Shown: positions 2,818 to 23,767 of the stretch, piece after piece
Layout of the letters: the number at the start of each line of letters is the position of its first letter
Position numbering within the stretch: the first letter of the stretch is position 1
Made by a program: the position numbers and the translations under genes
Notes under the pieces: generated by a model
What the model was told of the DNA's origin: nothing
Database searches by the model: none
What the model saw: only the letters and a program-made list of their open reading frames with translations
Assembly (NCBI GenBank): GCA_016177305.1
Contig: JACOVK010000061.1
Location: forward strand, 1 to 40,985
Direction of reading: 5' to 3'
Origin: Parcubacteria group bacterium
Lineage (GTDB): Bacteria; Patescibacteriota; Patescibacteriia; UBA2169
Length of the DNA: 40,985 nt

Positions 2818-4812
2818 TTAGACTAAAAAGCTCACCATCAAAAGCGCAACAATGTTAATCACTTTGATCATGGGGTTGATGGCCGGGCCTGCGGTGTCTT
2901 TGTACGGATCGCCGACCGTATCCCCGGTCACGCTTGCCGCGTGCGCCTCGCTTCCCTTGCCCCCGTGCCCGCCTGCTTCAATCAATTTTTTGGCGTTGTC
3001 CCAAGCTCCGCCGCCGGTGGTCATGGAAATGGCCACGAACAATCCCGTAACAATGGATCCGACAAGCATGCCCCCCAGGGCAACGGGCCCCAAAAGCCAT
3101 GCAACGACAATGGGCGAAAGCACGGGAATGAGCGCGGGCACGAACATTTGGCGCAAGGCATCCTTGGTGACGATGTCAACGCACGTGCCGTAATCCGGCT
3201 TAGCGCGCCCCTCCATAAGCCCGGGGATCTCCCGAAACTGCCGGCGCACCTCTTCCACCACCTTGCCCGCGGTTTTTGACACTGCTTCCATCACGAGCGC
3301 GCCGAAATAGTAGGGCAAGAGGCCCCCAACAAAAAGCCCGATGATCACGAGCGGATCCGAGAGCCGGAATAAAAGCTCGCGCCCGTGCAAAACAAATTCC
3401 TGGGAGTACGAAGCGAAGAGCACCAGCGCGGCCAATCCCGCGCTTCCGATGGCATAGCCTTTGGTGACCGCCTTGGTGGTGTTGCCCACGCTATCCAGCT
3501 TGTCCGTAACCTCGCGGACCTCTTTGGAAAGCCCCGCCATCTCCGCAATGCCGCCCGCATTATCCGTGATTGGGCCGAACGCGTCTATGGCAACGATTAT
3601 GCCGGCAAGCGAGAGCATGGAAACCGCGGCAACCGCGATGCCATAGAGTTCGGCAAGCCCGTACGATCCCCAGATTCCGAGGGCAATGACAATCACCGGC
3701 AGCGCGGTTGCGCGCATGGAAAGCGCGAGCCCGGCAATGATGTTCGGGCCGTGCCCTTTGGTGGATGCTTCGGCGATTGTTTTAACGGGCTGGTATCTGT
3801 CGGACGTGTAGTACTCGGTGATGATAACCAACAGCGCAGTCACGCCAAGCCCCACGAGAGAAGCGTAAAACAAGTTCAACGGAAGGTAGTGGCCGTTTCC
3901 GTCCATGAGCGCGAGTGTGGCGTAGTAAAACCCGATTGCCGCGAGCGAGCCCGATGCAACCAGTCCCTTGTAGAGCGCGGCCATGATGTTCTCTTTGCGC
4001 CCGAGGCGCACAAAGGCGAGGCCGATGACGGACGCCACAATGGAGATGCCGCCCAAGACGAGCGGGTACAGAACCGCGTTTTCAAAATCGCCGAACACCA
4101 GCGTCCCTAAAAGCATGCTCGCCACCGCGGTGACCGCGTACGTCTCAAAGAGGTCGGCCGCCATGCCCGCGGTGTCCCCCACGTTGTCTCCTACGTTGTC
4201 CGCAATCACGGCCGGGTTGCGCGGATCATCTTCGGGAATGTTCTTTTCCACCTTGCCGACCAGGTCAGCGCCGACATCCGCGGCCTTGGTGTAGATGCCG
4301 CCGCCCAGGCGCGCGAAAATAGAGATCAAGCTTCCTCCGAATCCCAAGCCGATGAGGGCGTTCACATCATGCGTGATTGCGTAGAACCCGGCAACACCGA
4401 GCAAGCCCAGGCCAACCACTAAAAATCCGGTGACGGCGCCGCCGCGCACCGCAACGGCCATTGCTTTTGAGAGGCCCCGGCTCGCCGCATGCGCCACGCG
4501 CACGTTCGCGCGCACCGCAACATTCATGCCTACGTACCCGGCAATTGAGGAAAGGGCTGCGCCGGTCAGAAAACCCCATGCTATGCTCCAGGAAAGTCCG
4601 AACCCAAGCGCAAAAAACACAAAAAATGCCACGACCGAAATGGTTCGGTACTGGCGGTTGAGGTATGCCTTGGAACCTTTTTGGATTGCCTCGGCGATTT
4701 GGCGCATTTTTTCATCGCCGGCTTTGCGGCCCAGCACCCAGGCCGCGAGAATCACGCCCGCGACAATGGCGAGCACGGAAGCTCCCAATGAGAAGAGAAG
4801 GTACGTAGACAT
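2818..4812 (-). CDS. hppA: Membrane-bound H+-translocating pyrophosphatase with the K+-independent signature
   Basis: 664 aa and polytopic. Motifs [18 protein letters not shown] and [18 protein letters not shown] are present, together with [10 protein letters not shown] (the Lys/Thr variant). Confidence 0.93.
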
Positions 4813-12607: not shown

Positions 12608-12648
12608 AAACCAAAGATACCCCTGGTTGTGACCAGAGGTATCTTTGG
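12608..12648 (-). terminator. Long hairpin terminator after tRNA-Ala(CGC)
   Basis: CCAAAGATACC.../...GGTATCTTTGG forms a 16-bp stem with 1 mismatch. Its 5' arm starts with the tRNA CCA end, and TTTG follows on the minus strand. Confidence 0.55.
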
Positions 12649-12721
12649 TGGACCTGAGGAGAATTGAACTCCTGGCCTTCGCAATGCGAATGCGACGCTC
12701 TACCAGCTGAGCTACAGGCCC
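12646..12721 (-). tRNA. tRNA-Ala(CGC)
   Basis: GGGCCTG TA GCTCAGCTGGTAGAGC G TCGCA TTCGCAT TGCGA AGGCC AGGAG TTCAATT CTCCT CAGGTCC A CCA. G3:U70 is present. Confidence 0.92.
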
Positions 12722-12782
12722 GCGTCAGCCGCGCGTTGCGGCTTCCGTATCCGGGCTTCGCCCGAATACTCCAGCCTCCACA

Positions 12783-12842
12783 CGCGTCTTCCTTTCAGAT
12801 TTTTTCTTAACTCCGCTAAACGCGGAGCCCAAGAAAAAATCT
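12783..12842. repeat. Copy 2 of the conserved hairpin element. Same outer stem as copy 1, inner stem CTCCGC/GCGGAG.
   Basis: Outer arms at 12797-12808 and 12831-12842, inner arms at 12811-12816 and 12822-12827. The flank TCTTCCT is conserved. Confidence 0.7.
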
Positions 12843-12879
12843 GCGAGAGAGTTTTTAATTTGTTCAATACTGAACAGTT

Positions 12880-12955
12880 TGGTGTCCTCACCAGGACTTG
12901 AACCCGGATCAATGGCTTAGGACGCCACTGCTCTATCCAATTGAGCTATGAGGAC
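12880..12955 (-). tRNA. tRNA-Arg(CCU)
   Basis: GTCCTCA TA GCTCAATTGGATAGAGC A GTGGC GTCCTAA GCCAT TGATC CGGGT TCAAGTC CTGG TGAGGAC A CCA. The anticodon loop gives CCT. Position 32 is G, which is unusual. Confidence 0.85.
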
Positions 12956-13104
12956 GCGATGTAGTCGGATTACATATTTTCTTCGCGTGCAGGTTTGGCC
13001 GCATCAAATTTTTGTTTAAAAATTGACATATTTAATCAAAAATGTTATTATTTTGTTCAACCCATCATGATTTTTTTGACATTTTTAACGAATTATGGTA
13101 TTTC

Positions 13105-13181
13105 TGGTGGACCCGGCGGGGCTCGAACCCGCGACCTTTAGTATGCCATACTAACGCTCTAACCAGCTGAGCTACGGGCCC
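13105..13181 (-). tRNA. tRNA-Ala(GGC)
   Basis: GGGCCCG TA GCTCAGCTGGTTAGAGC G TTAGT ATGGCAT ACTAA AGGTC GCGGG TTCGAGC CCCGC CGGGTCC A CCA. G3:U70 is present. Confidence 0.92.
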
Positions 13182-17036: not shown

Positions 17037-17116
17037 AGTGTTTGTGGAATTAGCAACAGATACAGAGTAGCACGTCAAGACGCTTGATACAAGCCTTGGT
17101 TATGGGGTTTGTGATT

Positions 17117-17863
17117 TTATGACCGGACTCCAATGCCCCACAGAAATTCAAAAATTTGTTTAAGGCTGAATGCCAGATCCGGCGAATAAATGATATACGC
17201 AATACCCTCTTTGCGCGTTGAAATCAGGCCAATGTTGTTTTCATAGATGTAGATACTGGCCTTCAAATCAACGTATTCGGGTAAGTACCGTATCTGCCGC
17301 AGGTAGGGTACTTGCTCATTGAAGATGGGTTCGTTGTGAACTGACTTTGATTTTATGCGGAGCGACCGCGTGTACAGTTTTGCATTCACACGGCGCGCAA
17401 TCCATTTTTTGATATATGTTTTGTCTACGGTTTGCAGGGTCAGTTCCGGAGGTGAGAAGTAGACATACTCTTTTTTAGCCTTTTTTAGTATGTCTTCGTA
17501 CACTTCGCGGCTGGCAAGCGGGCCTTGGAATATGCGTATTGATGGATTCTCGCCCTTATCCACATAGAGCGCCAAAAAATCCGGGAGCAAATCTTTGAGC
17601 TCCTGTTTTTGGATTTCAAATTTTTTATAGAGTTCTTTTGGCGGGAGCGCTATAAACGACTTTCGTTTGCCGTGGAATACGGTTTTTATGAACCCGCGCT
17701 CTTCCAAGGTACGGAGGTTGTCATATATGGCAGTGCGCCCGATGTTGAGGTCCTGCGCGAGGTCTTTTGCGGACCCTTCCCCGCGCTCAAGCGCGGCCAA
17801 ATAGAGCTGCGCCCGCTGGCTATCCAGCCCTGCAGAGAGCAGCCAGGAGATAAGGTTATTCAT
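17117..17863 (-). CDS. TrmB-family winged-helix transcriptional regulator
   Basis: LDSQRAQLYLAALERGEGSAKDLAQDLNIGRTAIYDNLRTLEERGFI followed by a TrmB-like C-terminal domain. I used the ATG at 17863. Confidence 0.7.
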   Translation of the reverse strand: MNNLISWLLSAGLDSQRAQLYLAALERGEGSAKDLAQDLNIGRTAIYDNLRTLEERGFIKTVFHGKRKSFIALPPKELYKKFEIQKQELKDLLPDFLALYVDKGENPSIRIFQGPLASREVYEDILKKAKKEYVYFSPPELTLQTVDKTYIKKWIARRVNAKLYTRSLRIKSKSVHNEPIFNEQVPYLRQIRYLPEYVDLKASIYIYENNIGLISTRKEGIAYIIYSPDLAFSLKQIFEFLWGIGVRS

Positions 17864-18053
17864 ATTTTCAATTATTTTTGACAAAAATTAAATTATTATT
17901 TACTTAATTTTAGCCTAAATCGCGTTAGGTTGCAATAGGATTTCAAAAATAGTTTACGATATTTTAGTTGTTTTTTATACTATAGGCATCCTGCAAAGTC
18001 CGGAATTACCGGACATTCACCACAGCGTTCATTTCATTCAGAAGGAGTGGAAT

Positions 18054-18431
18054 ATGCGTGCGATTGAAGAAATAGCCCAAGAAGGGCGGCTTGGCATGGT
18101 GGCCGAGTTGCTGGGCATGCACGATTTTGACGACCAGGCGTTCCAGTTTCTGGTTCGCGATCCGGAGTTCAGGGCCGCGGTTCGCAAAGCTGCCCAAAAA
18201 GCGTTCCGCAGGTGGGATGAGAAGGTTGCGGCAATCGTTGCGCACGTAAGCCGGTGCCGCTGGTGCCGCGAGAGAGCTCTTAGCTACGGCGACCAAGACC
18301 TTGAAGAACAGGTCAGGGGCTGGCGCCGTGTGGGCATGTTCAGGAATATTGAACAATTCGCCTGTGCAAAGACTCGCCGGGTGATTCCCATCAATAGACG
18401 ACAGCCAAACCGCGCTCGGGCGAAGAGCTGA
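18054..18431 (+). CDS. Hypothetical protein (125 aa, Arg-rich C-terminus)
   Basis: AAGGAG lies 6 nt upstream of the ATG. A TTTACG-17-TATACT promoter-like site sits at about 17953-17981. I recognised no family. Confidence 0.55.
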   Translation: MRAIEEIAQEGRLGMVAELLGMHDFDDQAFQFLVRDPEFRAAVRKAAQKAFRRWDEKVAAIVAHVSRCRWCRERALSYGDQDLEEQVRGWRRVGMFRNIEQFACAKTRRVIPINRRQPNRARAKS

Positions 18432-18582
18432 TTGTTCTAGCCTCTCATGAGGCAATACCCTCCCTTGCGGACGACAACGTCGTCTGTGGATGCTTGACAA
18501 GGCGCATGGTTTTGTGATAAGATGCAGTCTTCGTGTAAAAATCGCGAAGTGTTCCCAATAACCCCTAGCGAAAGGCTAGAAG

Positions 18583-19011
18583 ATGAAGCTCAAGGCGGTG
18601 ATTTCCAGAGATGCCCCTATGACGCTCTTCAAGGCGTTCAGCAGCGAAGGATTCGCCAGGACCTTCCTGGAGAACGTCTTGGTCGGCTGTCTCGGTGCGA
18701 AGGACCCGGCCGAGCGTCCAGCCGAGTACTACGTCCAGGAACCTGATCCCATGGTCACGGTCGGCGTGTGCCTCGGTGTGGAGCTCCGGCTCACGGGCAT
18801 CAGCAGGGGCGGGCGCACGGCCAAGCAGTTCCACGACGCCCTGAAGGCGCTCAAGGATCTCGCCGCGCGAACCATCGCCGAGAACCTCAAGGTTGGCCGC
18901 GTTCAGCTCTTTGTGGTCATCATGTTGGACGGCGATGTCGAGACCAAGCCCGGCTCGGGCCAGTACAGCAACGTGCTGGAGTCAGACGCCATCTGGGTCG
19001 AGACCAACTAG
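18583..19011 (+). CDS. Hypothetical protein (142 aa)
   Basis: It has its own TTGACA -35 box at 18494-18499 and is followed by a strong terminator. I recognised no family. Confidence 0.55.
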   Translation: MKLKAVISRDAPMTLFKAFSSEGFARTFLENVLVGCLGAKDPAERPAEYYVQEPDPMVTVGVCLGVELRLTGISRGGRTAKQFHDALKALKDLAARTIAENLKVGRVQLFVVIMLDGDVETKPGSGQYSNVLESDAIWVETN

Positions 19012-19046
19012 CCCAAGACGGCATAGCCTTCTGGCTCCGCCGACTG

Positions 19047-19098
19047 CACCCTTCTCTCGCAGATGGCAACATCGTCTGCGGGGGAGGGGTGTTTTTTT
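19047..19098 (+). terminator. Rho-independent terminator
   Basis: A long stem of about 17 bp including G:U pairs (core CGCAGA/TCTGCG) is followed by T7 at 19092-19098. Confidence 0.8.
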
Positions 19099-19123
19099 GT
19101 GTAGAATTTGCCGCCCAAAACCA

Positions 19124-19151
19124 TTGACAAATTTTGTAAAAGGGGTATAAT
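19124..19151 (+). promoter_or_regulatory. Near-consensus sigma70 promoter (TTGACA-16-TATAAT)
   Basis: TTGACA at 19124-19129, a 16-nt spacer, TATAAT at 19146-19151. Confidence 0.75.
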
Positions 19152-19157
19152 AAAAAT

Positions 19158-19251
19158 GTACCTGTGACCCGAAAGGGTTGTTCGGCTAAAGGAATTTCCA
19201 TACGCCGAAAGCAGGTACACTAAAAAACCGCCTTCCTTGAGGCGGTTTTTT
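19158..19251 (+). ncRNA. Candidate stand-alone small RNA of about 94 nt: a three-helix fold followed by an intrinsic terminator
   Basis: P1 is GTACCTG/CAGGTAC (19158-64 / 19212-18). P2 is ACCC-GAAA-GGGT. P3 is CGGC...GCCG. The terminator is at 19222-19251. There is no plausible ORF (only ATG-TAC-CTG-TGA) and no + strand gene downstream. Confidence 0.6.
19222..19251. terminator. Bidirectional intrinsic terminator
   Basis: AAAAAACCGCC-TTCCTTGA-GGCGGTTTTTT. It serves the + strand sRNA and the convergent minus-strand gyrA-operon ORF. Confidence 0.85.
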
Positions 19252-19654
19252 AGTTGCGTCGCTTGTCTTTCTTTTTCCAGATACTGTAAAAGTGAATGTT
19301 CCCAGTTCCTATTCTTCTCAAGATGACCGTGACTTTTGTATTTTGTTTCCCAACAACATGCCCTAATTCCCAAATTTCTGTCTTCTTTCCAAGCTTTTTA
19401 GAAAATTCTGATTTGTACTCAATCACTTCGTTGGCGTTTTTGATTACCGGAATCAACAACGGCAGCAGTCCGAGACGATACATCCTTTCTTTTTTTGATC
19501 GGGCGTGCCCTAACCCGTCATAGAGTAAGTGGCGGAAACCCTTGGAGGTAAAATGAATATCTTCGCTTAACAGAGGACAGTGCACCTGTCTCACCGCTTT
19601 GTACCATCCCCTTTTCTCTGTCACCATTCTTTCGTAGTATGTTTGTCCCTCCAT
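19250..19654 (-). CDS. AT-rich hypothetical protein (134 aa) appended to the gyrA operon
   Basis: The ATG at 19654 lies 9 nt after the gyrA stop. The composition is clearly more AT-rich than gyrA. The C-terminus is Lys-rich. I recognised no family. Confidence 0.55.
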   Translation of the reverse strand: MEGQTYYERMVTEKRGWYKAVRQVHCPLLSEDIHFTSKGFRHLLYDGLGHARSKKERMYRLGLLPLLIPVIKNANEVIEYKSEFSKKLGKKTEIWELGHVVGKQNTKVTVILRRIGTGNIHFYSIWKKKDKRRN

Positions 19655-19663
19655 ACACGACAA

Positions 19664-22138
19664 CTACACCAAGGTCACGTTCGCAACGCGGTCGCCGGGC
19701 TGCTTGAAGCGCATGATGCGCACCCCCTGCGTGGCGCGGCCGAGCTTGTTGATGGACTTTAAGGGCAAGCGGATGGTCTGGCCCTTGGCGGAAATGGCGA
19801 GCACGTCCGTCTTTTCATCTACGGTCGCGGGATCAAGCAAGCGCGCGCCCACAACCTCGCCGGTTTTGGAGGAGACGTTCGCGGTTTTAATGCCGGATCC
19901 GCCGCGGGACTGGACCTTGTACTCGCTCGCGGGGGACTGCTTGCCGTAGCCCTGGCTCATGACTACCAGCAGGGTTGTGTCTTTTTGCTTTTTGGGGTCA
20001 AAAATATCCATGCCAACCACGCGGTCAGCCTTTTTGAGGCGGATGCCCCGCACCCCGGCCGCTGCCCGGCCCATTGGCCTGACGCCTGTTTCCTCAAACC
20101 GGATGGCTTGCCCTGCCTGGGATACGAGCACAATGTTGTCACGCCCGCTGGAAGGCTTTACCCAGCGCAAGGAGTCGCCCTCTTTGAGCTTGATGGCAAT
20201 CAAGCCGCTCCGGCGCACGTGGCTAAAGTCATTGATATCAACCTTTTTGATGGTGCCTTCGCGCGTGACCATCACCAAAAACTTGGAGTCCTTGATGTCA
20301 TCAAGCGAGAGCACTACATTGATGCGTTCTTCTCCGGAAATCTGCAAAAAGTTCATGAGCGACGAGCCCTTGGCCGTGCGGCTCGCAACCGGAATGTCGT
20401 AGCCCTTGAGCTGGAACACCCTTCCGCGCGTGGTAAAGAAGAGGATGTCTGAGTGCGTCATGCCCGTAAAGAAGATGGACACCTCGTCCTCTTCCTTGGT
20501 GGTTAAACCGACCACGCCTTTGCCGCCGCGGCCTTGGGTCTTAAAGGTGTCGGGAGATAAGCGCTTGATGTACCCGTCGCGCGTAATCATGACCACCATG
20601 CCTTCGTTCGGAATCAGGTCCTCCTGGGAGAACTTATCAACCCCGCCGGCCACAATTTTGGTGCGGCGCTCTTCGCCGTAGGCGGCCTTGAGGTCCGCAA
20701 GCTCGCCTTTGATGATGGCAATCACTTTCTTGGGGCTTGCGAGGATTGCCTCAAGCTCCGCGATCCACTCTCGCTTTTCTTTGAGCTCGTCTTCCAGCTT
20801 CTTGCGCTCCAGGTTCGCAAGCTGGGACAGGCGCATGTCAAGAATTGCATTGGCCTGCAGTTCCGTGAATTTGAACGCCTTCATTAATCCGACCCGCGCT
20901 TCGTCGCGATCCTTGGATTTTTTGATCAAGGCGATCACCTTGTCAATAATGCCGATTGCCTTAACCAAACCTTCCAGAATGTGGGCGCGCGCCTTGGCGC
21001 GGGCAAGGTCAAATTCGGTCCTGCGGCGGATGACGGTTTTACGGTGTTTGATGAACTCTTCAAAAATGCTCTTTAGCGTCAGCACGCGCGGCTGGATGCC
21101 GTCCACCAGTGCGAGCATGTTCACGTGGAAGGTTGCCTGCAGGGCAGTGAGCTTAAAAAGGCGGTTTAAGATTTTTTGCGGGTACGTGTCTTTCTTCAGC
21201 TCAATCACCACGCGCACGCCGTCTTTGTCGGACTCGTCCCGCAGGTCGCGGATCCCTTCAATTTTTTTGTCCTTTACCAGCTCCGCGATTTTAGTGATGA
21301 GGTCCGCCTTGTTTACCTGGAACGGGATTTCCGTGATGATGATGTCGTGCGCCCCGCCCCGCGCTTCCACGATGTCCGTGACCCCGCGCATCACAATGCC
21401 GCCGCGGCCGGTTGCGTAGGCCTGTTTGATGTCGTCCTTGTTGTAGATGATGCCGCCCGTGGGGAAGTCCGGGCCCCTTACGATTTTGGCGAGCTCGCTT
21501 GCGTCAATGTCGGCATCGTCAAGAAGGGCCGCAATGCCGAGGCAGAGCTCGGAAAGGTTGTGCGGGGGAATGTTGGTTGCCATGCCCACGGCAATGCCCA
21601 GCGTGCCGTTTAGGAGCAGGTTCGGAAGCTTTGCCGGCAAAACGCGCGGTTCCTTTTGGGTGCCGTCGTAGTTGTCCGCAAAATCAACGGTTTCTTTTTC
21701 AATGTCAGCCAGGAGTTCTTCCGCGACTCTTGCGAGCTTGGCTTCGGTGTAGCGCATGGCTGCGGCGCCGTCCCCGTCCATGGACCCGAAGTTTCCCTGG
21801 CCGTGTATGAGCGGATGGCGCATGGAAAAGTCCTGTGCCATGCGCACCATGGCATCGTACACCGCAACGTCCCCGTGCGGGTGGTACTTGCCCAGCACTT
21901 CTCCGACGACGGTCGCGCTCTTGCGGAATTTGGCCGAAGGCTTTAGGCCCAAGGTCCACATGGCGTACAAAATCCTGCGGTGCACGGGCTTTAAGCCGTC
22001 CCGCACGTCCGGCAGGGCGCGCGAAACAATCACGGACATGGCGTAGTCCAAGTACGCCCGCTGCATCTCATCAACAATGGGCTGCTTTTCCACCCTGCCT
22101 CGGCTGTCCGGCTTTGGTTGTTCTTCCTTTTTCGGCAT
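19664..22138 (-). CDS. gyrA: DNA gyrase subunit A
   Basis: [18 protein letters not shown] (active-site Tyr) and C-terminal beta-pinwheel repeats. 824 aa. Confidence 0.97.
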
Positions 22139-23659: not shown

Positions 23660-23767
23660 AAGCTTTGTTCTAAAAAGCCTCGTTTTACCATTAACTATTA
23701 TCAGTAATCCCCTTGCTACGGCTTGAGAGCGCCCGGAATGCGAGGCGCAAGGGAAAACCGTTACCAT

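Follow-up and report, generated by a model that had tools for sequence, protein, structure and literature searches.

The window analysed here, i.e., the whole 40,985-nucleotide stretch of contig JACOVK010000061.1 (assembly GCA_016177305.1, from a Parcubacteria group bacterium), carries between its gyrA and rpmH genes a small-RNA gene on the forward strand and, tail-to-tail with it on the reverse strand, an open reading frame (ORF) encoding a basic protein of 134 amino acids. Comparison with related loci indicates that these two genes form a conserved RNA-protein module of the Patescibacteria, also known as the candidate phyla radiation (CPR). The features that make up the module in the window are the following:

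19124-19151, forward strand: sigma-70-type promoter of the RNA gene, with the -35 box TTGACA at 19124-19129, a 16-nt spacer and the -10 box TATAAT at 19146-19151
19158-19218, forward strand: small-RNA core, a three-way junction of 61 nt, from the minimum free energy (MFE) fold and covariation
19158-19165 / 19211-19218, forward strand: helix P1, GUACCUG/CAGGUAC plus one U-G pair
19166-19170 / 19175-19179, forward strand: helix P2, with a GAAA loop at 19171-19174
19181-19186 / 19204-19209, forward strand: helix P3, UUCGGC/GCCGAA
19187-19190 and 19200-19203, forward strand: A-rich internal loop of P3
19191-19192 / 19198-19199, forward strand: apical GG/CC stem of P3
19219-19254: bidirectional intrinsic terminator, common to the RNA and the convergent ORF (A-run, CCGCCU, loop UCCUUG, AGGCGG, U-run)
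19250-19654, reverse strand: ORF for the 134-amino-acid basic protein (isoelectric point [pI] 10.1), a stand-alone LPD3-like domain and the proposed partner of the RNA

The RNA Gene in the Window

Judged from its sequence, the forward-strand element is an independently transcribed, structured small-RNA gene. Its promoter agrees with the TTGACA-16-TATAAT consensus at 12/12 positions and is the sole perfect site in the 41-kb window, and no such site arose in 100 dinucleotide-preserving shuffles of the window. P1 begins approximately 7 nt 3′ of the -10 box, the core starting at 19158. The MFE fold of 19158-19251 consists exactly of the three-way junction and the terminator (-44.7 kcal/mol, z = -7.6; 0/200 shuffles equal). 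The terminator arms (19219-19233 and 19240-19254, 15 nt each) are 100% complementary, an A-run marking one side and a T-run the other; the convergent ORF ends within this T-run, its stop codon being 19250-19252. The sole ORF within the RNA, ATG-TAC-CTG-TGA, has three codons, and the next real forward-strand gene 3′ of it, which encodes an S1 protein, starts at 23723. These results agree with a first-pass annotation made from the letters of the window, which had pointed to the best promoter match of the window, three helices, a perfect intrinsic terminator shared with an AT-rich convergent ORF, a longest reading frame of only three codons, and the absence of any forward-strand gene within 4 kb downstream. 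Upstream of the RNA gene, the ORF at 18583-19011 is followed by a strong 20-bp hairpin with a T-run (19046-19092), the end of which is separated by 32 nt from the RNA promoter; the RNA gene is thus insulated from transcription coming from upstream.

A New Family of Structured RNAs

Comparative evidence argues that the RNA represents a new, strongly conserved structured family without earlier description. When the whole window was searched with Rfam 15 at gathering thresholds, only four tRNAs elsewhere were matched. At E ≤ 10, the RNA region gave only partial matches of 10-23 bits (versus thresholds of 39-87), which aligned to the terminator hairpin and correspond to terminator look-alikes such as RNAI and ctRNA. 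The earlier remark that the RNA matches no familiar riboswitch or ribozyme core therefore stood at both settings, and a literature search found no description of the RNA or its family. In its general architecture, a small three-way junction with a GNRA loop, the RNA is like the hammerhead and purine-riboswitch-type RNAs. Nevertheless, a hammerhead was rejected, as the CUGANGA/GAAA core is absent from the RNA sequence and the Rfam small-ribozyme models give no match at E ≤ 10, and a purine-type aptamer was rejected because the junction strands of the RNA are too short.

A covariance model (R1) was built from 54 distinct RNAs. On the window it detects the RNA as a single copy with 80.3 bits, whereas the reverse strand of the RNA reaches 14.9 bits only. 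Conservation and covariation in related genomes, which had been proposed as a check on the first-pass annotation, were found for all three helices, both in a set of 54 sequences and in a set of 64 distinct sequences including distant members. Standard pairing occurs in 99.1% of cells in the smaller and 98.8% in the larger set, and compensatory double changes affect 11/21 and 14/21 pairs, respectively. The covariation score is 0.315 in the 54 sequences (0.174 in column shuffles) and 0.342 in the 64 sequences (0.184 in column shuffles), with 0/500 shuffles equal in either case, and in both sets it drops to 0.05-0.09 when the pairing partners are slid by 1-3 columns. Four compensatory pairs of the larger set lie in P3, e.g., GGC/GCC changing to AGC/GCU, and RNAalifold predicts P1, P2, and P3 independently.

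The junction and loop nucleotides are likewise highly conserved. The P2 loop reads GNAA in 61/64 sequences, and the conserved, A-rich internal loop of P3 carries UAA(A) opposite AUAA, AUAC or CUAA, with the short GG/CC stem above it. In some members the 3′ strand of P3 reads CCUAAG, which is identical to one strand of the classical 11-nt GAAA-tetraloop receptor; that the P2 loop docks into the P3 internal loop is put forward as a hypothesis only. The last P1 pair is U-G in 47/64 sequences and the first P2 pair is G-U in 55/64, and these frequent G-U pairs fix the transcribed strand. The flanking signals are conserved as well: among 52 related loci, 36 have a promoter matching at ≥10/12 positions, 39 have the -10 box at a fixed distance from P1, and 50 have an A-run/hairpin/T-run terminator directly after the RNA core.

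Linkage of the RNA to the Convergent ORF

The first-pass annotation had described the RNA as "stand-alone." The related loci indicate instead that it is one half of a conserved two-gene module, in which the RNA and the convergent LPD3-like ORF behave as an obligate pair, co-inherited across Patescibacteria and seen tail-to-tail in dozens of their genomes. A protein-first scan, using one genome per species, provided 14 loci from Parcubacteria, Paceibacterota, Saccharibacteria, Magasanikbacteria, Komeilibacteria and two metagenome-assembled genomes labelled Actinomycetota; the RNA was convergent in 14/14, located 14-64 nt beyond the ORF, and each of the 14 copies had its own TTGACA/TATAAT-like promoter and A-run/hairpin/T-run terminator. 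Even beside proteins only 30-42% identical to that of the window, the RNA still adjoins the ORF (L078-L083, 30-63 bits with model R1), and for three further homologues (P0008, P0058, and P0032) it was present at every place looked up. In total, the protein-first approach found the RNA in 21/21 distinct protein cases, down to 30% identity. The converse, RNA-first scan of metagenome contigs with a degenerate pattern on P3 returned 63 loci, 54 of which had enough sequence to judge, and a near-full-length ORF homologue occupied the same convergent position in 45 of these 54. As a control, the relatives of the window genome that are without the ORF are also without the RNA, and no intact ORF without the RNA was seen among the loci checked.

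The two genes differ in their expression signals. Comparison of related loci revealed no conserved promoter, 5′ untranslated region or Shine-Dalgarno sequence for the ORFs. These often follow a host gene of the same orientation at a distance of 9-40 nt, which for gyrA and the ORF of the window is 9 nt. In the subfamily represented by L008 and L094, the terminator overlaps the last ORF codons.

In the nine remaining assessable RNA-first loci, the ORF is internally deleted (L035 and L059), truncated (L034, L054, and L068) or absent (L042 and L015/L046/L077), the RNA being intact in 9/9 and the terminator in six of nine, i.e., in all but L015/L046/L077. Most of these solo RNA copies adjoin recognisable ORF remnants. 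The solo RNA of L042 (3871-4199) has a promoter and a terminator, no ORF, and lies between tRNA-Lys and tRNA-Arg genes. In L015/L046/L077 (e.g., L077 1577-1640) the RNA has no terminator, and an unrelated small ORF (MKKLNEVTTECIENQ...) lies next to it in the same direction, giving the impression that the RNA was recruited as the 5′ leader of that ORF.

The LPD3-Like Protein

The window protein matches the Pfam LPD3 model (PF18798) with E = 5e-4 and 20.6 bits, below the 27-bit cut-off. The same model is matched at E ≤ 0.01 by 12/32 close relatives (best 5.4e-7), and several relatives carry a precomputed PF18798 assignment. Searches of the protein against NCBIfam, PADLOC, and PHROGs returned no match. 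One relative shows a weak match to PBECR4 (E = 0.008), which is insufficient for an identity as a BECR-type RNase, and this candidate was rejected. Similarly, IS200/IS605 TnpA or another transposase was rejected as the identity of the ORF product, given the absence of a Pfam, NCBIfam or PHROG match, of an HUH motif and of terminal repeats.

The AlphaFold2 model of the window protein (predicted local distance difference test [pLDDT] 90.7, predicted template modelling score [pTM] 0.81) is a confidently predicted soluble alpha/beta domain composed of a helix, two short strands, three helices and a four-stranded meander. The model of a distant, 155-amino-acid subfamily (pLDDT 84.6) repeats this topology, but with helices 3 and 4 merged into one long helix. 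Neither model found an analogue in the PDB (best E-values 0.09-0.1); RelE/BrnT-like and HigB-like toxin chains appeared there among non-significant structure matches only, and a profile search of PDB sequences gave chance-level matches only. In a Foldseek search of predicted viral structures, the top seven matches were LPD3/polyvalent proteins (probability 1.00, query-normalised TM-score 0.51-0.64, E down to 2.5e-4). The protein is accordingly modelled with the fold of the LPD3 domains in phage polyvalent proteins. The paper defining LPD3 assigns the domain no function (Iyer et al., 2017; PMC5512222).

A first homologue search yielded 76 close homologues, nearly all from Patescibacteria metagenomes, and an exhaustive profile search extended these to 1133 cluster representatives (50% clustering), 581 of them at E ≤ 1e-10. 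Among the best 150 of the 1133 representatives, nearly all are stand-alone proteins of ~110-220 amino acids. Distant members share the invariant residues Y18, G39, F40, H42, R52, and S124, to which the A1 and A5 alignments add K90 and W95, and pI values range from 9.8 to 10.6 in 32/32 aligned members. A basic protein with such a conserved Tyr/His/Arg/Lys/Ser set would fit nucleic-acid binding or metal-independent RNA chemistry. In the 155-amino-acid subfamily (L079 2331-3881 and L082 1039-3230), the C-terminal tail is acidic (...GIEDE) instead of basic.

Insertion and Mobility of the Module

GyrA places the window in Patescibacteria, with nearest relatives that are 88-90% identical. In four of these (L084-L087), gyrA is followed within ~10-200 nt by rpmH-rnpA-yidD-yidC. 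They align with the window up to the gyrA stop codon and again from 17075-17081, with nothing between, and the extra DNA of the window begins directly after that stop codon. The ORF, which the first-pass annotation had placed at the 3′ end of the gyrA operon, is thus not an original part of it: RNA and ORF both reside in a 2.6-kb insertion absent from close relatives, which contains the following further features:

17076-19664: the 2,589-bp insertion itself, between the gyrA stop codon and the rpmH promoter, from alignment to four relatives
17117-17884, reverse strand: TrmB-like helix-turn-helix (HTH) protein
18006-18500, reverse strand: ORF without family match
18583-19011, forward strand: ORF without family match

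The RNA/ORF part of the insertion has 37-45% GC versus ~60% in the flanks, and GC content together with homology suggests that the island is composite. The nearest other copy of the module (L001/L023/L049, 74% nucleotide identity) is homologous to 19124-19636 only, i.e., from the -35 box to the ORF N-terminus, so that promoter, RNA, terminator and ORF constitute the moving unit. The CPR genome of the window acquired the pair horizontally. Neighbouring genes vary from locus to locus and none is conserved, most of them being housekeeping genes such as those for SerRS, IleRS, ProRS, MurJ, and NUDIX proteins. Two distant members adjoin integrases or a large serine recombinase. In the 155-amino-acid subfamily (L079 and L082), the neighbours are a large serine recombinase, or two tyrosine integrases and an HTH_3 gene, which suggests integrative elements. 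No terminal or flanking repeats were found around the element and no transposase is linked to it. An origin from a phage or plasmid was rejected, because searches of IMG/VR, GenBank phages, and PLSDB plasmids detected no copy of the protein or of the RNA.

Possible Functions of the Module

We tentatively favour a type III-like toxin-antitoxin or abortive-infection module, in which the RNA would bind a weakly expressed protein and restrain it. The transcript of ~19158-19251 would be the RNA half of a compact, horizontally transferred module, and the convergent 134-amino-acid protein its other half. The RNA, compactly folded and presumably abundant, would act in trans through direct contact with the strongly basic protein, and would keep it inactive while the RNA supply lasts. 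If this supply falls, e.g., when a phage shuts off host transcription or when the module is lost, the protein would be released and could act on a nucleic-acid target, probably RNA, in view of its invariant Tyr/His/Arg/Lys/Ser set and its pI of ~10. The consensus promoter of the RNA versus the promoter-less ORF may be the asymmetry expected of an antitoxin versus a toxin. The RNA outliving the ORF, and never the reverse, is a decay pattern that would favour restraint; this is weak evidence, because the RNA-first scan could only detect loci with an intact P3, and because mutations have an approximately five-fold larger target in the ORF. A precedent is provided by AvcID, a type III system in which a single non-repeated small RNA binds and inhibits a non-RNase toxin (PMC10511110). 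Several observations speak against restraint of a toxin, however: the locus lacks the hallmarks of the classical type III families (a tandem array of RNA repeats, an RNA transcribed in the toxin direction through an internal terminator, and a toxin of the ToxN/AbiQ fold), the PADLOC models give no match, no known nuclease of the PDB has a fold like that of the protein, and the module was not found in the phage and plasmid collections, although phages and plasmids frequently carry toxin-antitoxin and abortive-infection modules.

The main rival, which we consider unlikely yet deserving of serious attention, is a cooperative ribonucleoprotein, where the RNA would serve as a cofactor, scaffold or substrate needed by the LPD3-like protein (e.g., an RNA-dependent effector) and the protein alone would be non-toxic. 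The linkage, the co-transfer and the basic nature of the protein fit this possibility equally, and a compact, tertiary-looking RNA, with its prevailing GNAA loop and an A-rich loop resembling a tetraloop receptor, is more typical of protein-binding or functional RNA than of ToxI pseudoknot repeats. Solo RNAs that keep promoter and terminator after ORF loss (L042, L035, and L054) argue against cooperation, as does the strong RNA promoter beside a promoter-less ORF, which suggests a large RNA excess rather than a 1:1 ratio; neither point is decisive. The RNA could also be independent of the protein, i.e., a trans-acting small RNA, a ligand-binding RNA or a small ribozyme hitch-hiking beside the ORF, as its own promoter and terminator, its conserved junction and loop nucleotides, and the solo copies between tRNA genes (L042) or upstream of another small ORF (L015/L046/L077) might indicate. 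We consider this improbable: the RNA stands beside the ORF at every protein-first locus, in fixed orientation and spacing down to 30% protein identity, it has no extended conserved single-stranded seed and, even at E ≤ 10, matches none of the ribozymes or riboswitches in Rfam, and most solo copies adjoin ORF remnants.

In convergent type I loci of Bacillus that overlap at their 3′ ends, the antisense RNAs RatA and SR4 act on txpA and bsrG, respectively. By analogy, the RNA could pair with the 3′ end of the ORF mRNA via the common terminator and promote mRNA decay, and the first-pass annotation had indeed proposed looking for such pairing with the 19250-19654 mRNA. The genes are convergent, the terminator is fully complementary in the window and found in 50/52 related loci, and in the L008 and L094 subfamily it reaches into the coding sequence. 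The pairing is trivial, however, as it involves just the common terminator, each copy of which is sequestered within its own hairpin. It cannot explain the conserved P1-P3 core, which lies outside the overlap, and duplexes between the core and the mRNA are no better for cognate (-31.4 kcal/mol) than for non-cognate combinations (-31.0 kcal/mol, p = 0.82). With a 134-amino-acid soluble basic domain in place of a short hydrophobic peptide, a type I-like antisense mechanism seems quite improbable. More improbable by far is that the palindromes occur by chance in a DNA-level element (a site of recombination or protein binding, for example) that gives rise to no RNA. The apical sequence GGAATTCC is a DNA palindrome, and the module is mobile yet without a linked transposase. 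Against this, the other strand would have A-C mismatches in place of the frequent G-U pairs, the reverse strand scores poorly with the covariance model, dozens of loci have the helices bounded exactly by promoter and terminator, and flanking terminal repeats are lacking.

Comparison with Known Systems

The type III toxin-antitoxin systems (ToxIN, CptIN, and TenpIN, with AvcID as a non-canonical case) resemble the module in having two genes, one for a small structured RNA and one for a protein, in the expected excess of the RNA, in the mobility and variable context of the module, and in an RNA that is not antisense to the coding sequence. They also differ from it. Their antitoxins consist of tandem short direct RNA repeats, whereas no such repeats occur in 18950-19800 and nearly all loci have a single three-way-junction unit. 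Their RNA gene lies upstream, on the toxin strand, and is followed by an attenuating terminator, whereas the RNA gene of the window and of all related loci is convergent, with its own promoter and a bidirectional terminator. Finally, their toxins are endoribonucleases of the ToxN/AbiQ, CptN, and TenpN types, whereas the fold predicted here is LPD3-like, neither ToxN/AbiQ nor a deaminase, and Pfam, NCBIfam, and PADLOC give none of these RNases, the weak LPD3 match being the only one. AvcID, like the module, has one non-repeated small RNA, and its toxin is other than a ToxN-type RNase (PMC10511110).

The convergent type I systems txpA/RatA and bsrG/SR4 share with the module the tail-to-tail arrangement of an RNA and an mRNA that have a terminator region in common. 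Here, in contrast, the overlap is limited to the terminator hairpin, with the three-way junction outside it, and the protein, of 134 amino acids, pI 10.1 and predicted solubility, is unlike the small hydrophobic membrane peptides that serve as type I toxins. With LPD3 of phage and conjugative polyvalent proteins, the protein shares the predicted fold and a weak sequence similarity (the 12/32 members that match the Pfam model). It differs in being stand-alone, encoded in cellular CPR genomes and accompanied by a dedicated RNA gene, whereas polyvalent LPD3 is without a known RNA partner.

Significance of the Module

The RNA is the first partner proposed for LPD3. It is possible, and we state this with some reserve, that the module defines a new class of RNA-protein modules, in which the LPD3 fold has a dedicated three-way-junction RNA as its cognate ligand. 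Recognition or targeting of RNA would then also be the property of the LPD3 domains contained in the polyvalent proteins that phages and conjugative elements inject, and the stand-alone CPR form would be a new RNA-antitoxin (type III-like) toxin-antitoxin or defence family, whose architecture (a convergent, single-copy RNA gene under its own promoter) and toxin fold would both be unprecedented. LPD3 is widespread (1133 stand-alone representatives in addition to polyvalent proteins) and has no solved structure, and an RNA partner offers the first testable hypothesis for it, namely, RNA binding or targeting. The RNA also adds a compact structured family to the CPR/Patescibacteria, for which our literature search found no structured non-coding RNA. 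CPR hosts are unculturable, and the module would provide them with an RNA-antitoxin system of new architecture and with a new toxin fold; as it measures only ~540 bp, it can easily be synthesised and tried in Escherichia coli.

Variant Copies and Other Observations

Extra RNA copies without extra ORFs occur in L005, L054, and L011, as separate genes of variant form. Two unrelated contigs (L005 1311-1368 and L054 877-932, both on the reverse strand) have a second, distinct variant, placed in tandem with the standard RNA and upstream of it. Its P2 reads GGGGC-GUCA-GCCCU, and its P3 is short and lacks the apical GG/CC extension; L054 has lost the ORF and kept both RNAs. In the Komeilibacteria contig L011, a third variant (2895-2950, forward strand; 50.8 bits) is found upstream of the ORF and on the ORF's strand, besides the normal convergent copy; P1 and P2 are unchanged, P3 is replaced by an unrelated hairpin, and the variant has its own terminator.

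Elsewhere in the window and among the sequences compared, some minor features were noted. The stretch at 17850-18000 within the insertion is a very AT-rich divergent promoter region (21-38% GC). Two closely related GyrA homologues from Patescibacteria, P0308 and P0318, contain intein and homing-endonuclease domains (PF14890, and in the 1268-amino-acid P0308 also PF14528) that do not occur in the window GyrA of 824 amino acids. The tRNA genes of the window, of which Ala-CGC, Arg-CCU, and Ala-GGC are clustered at 12646-13181 on the reverse strand and Gly-GCC lies at 678-753, are ordinary.

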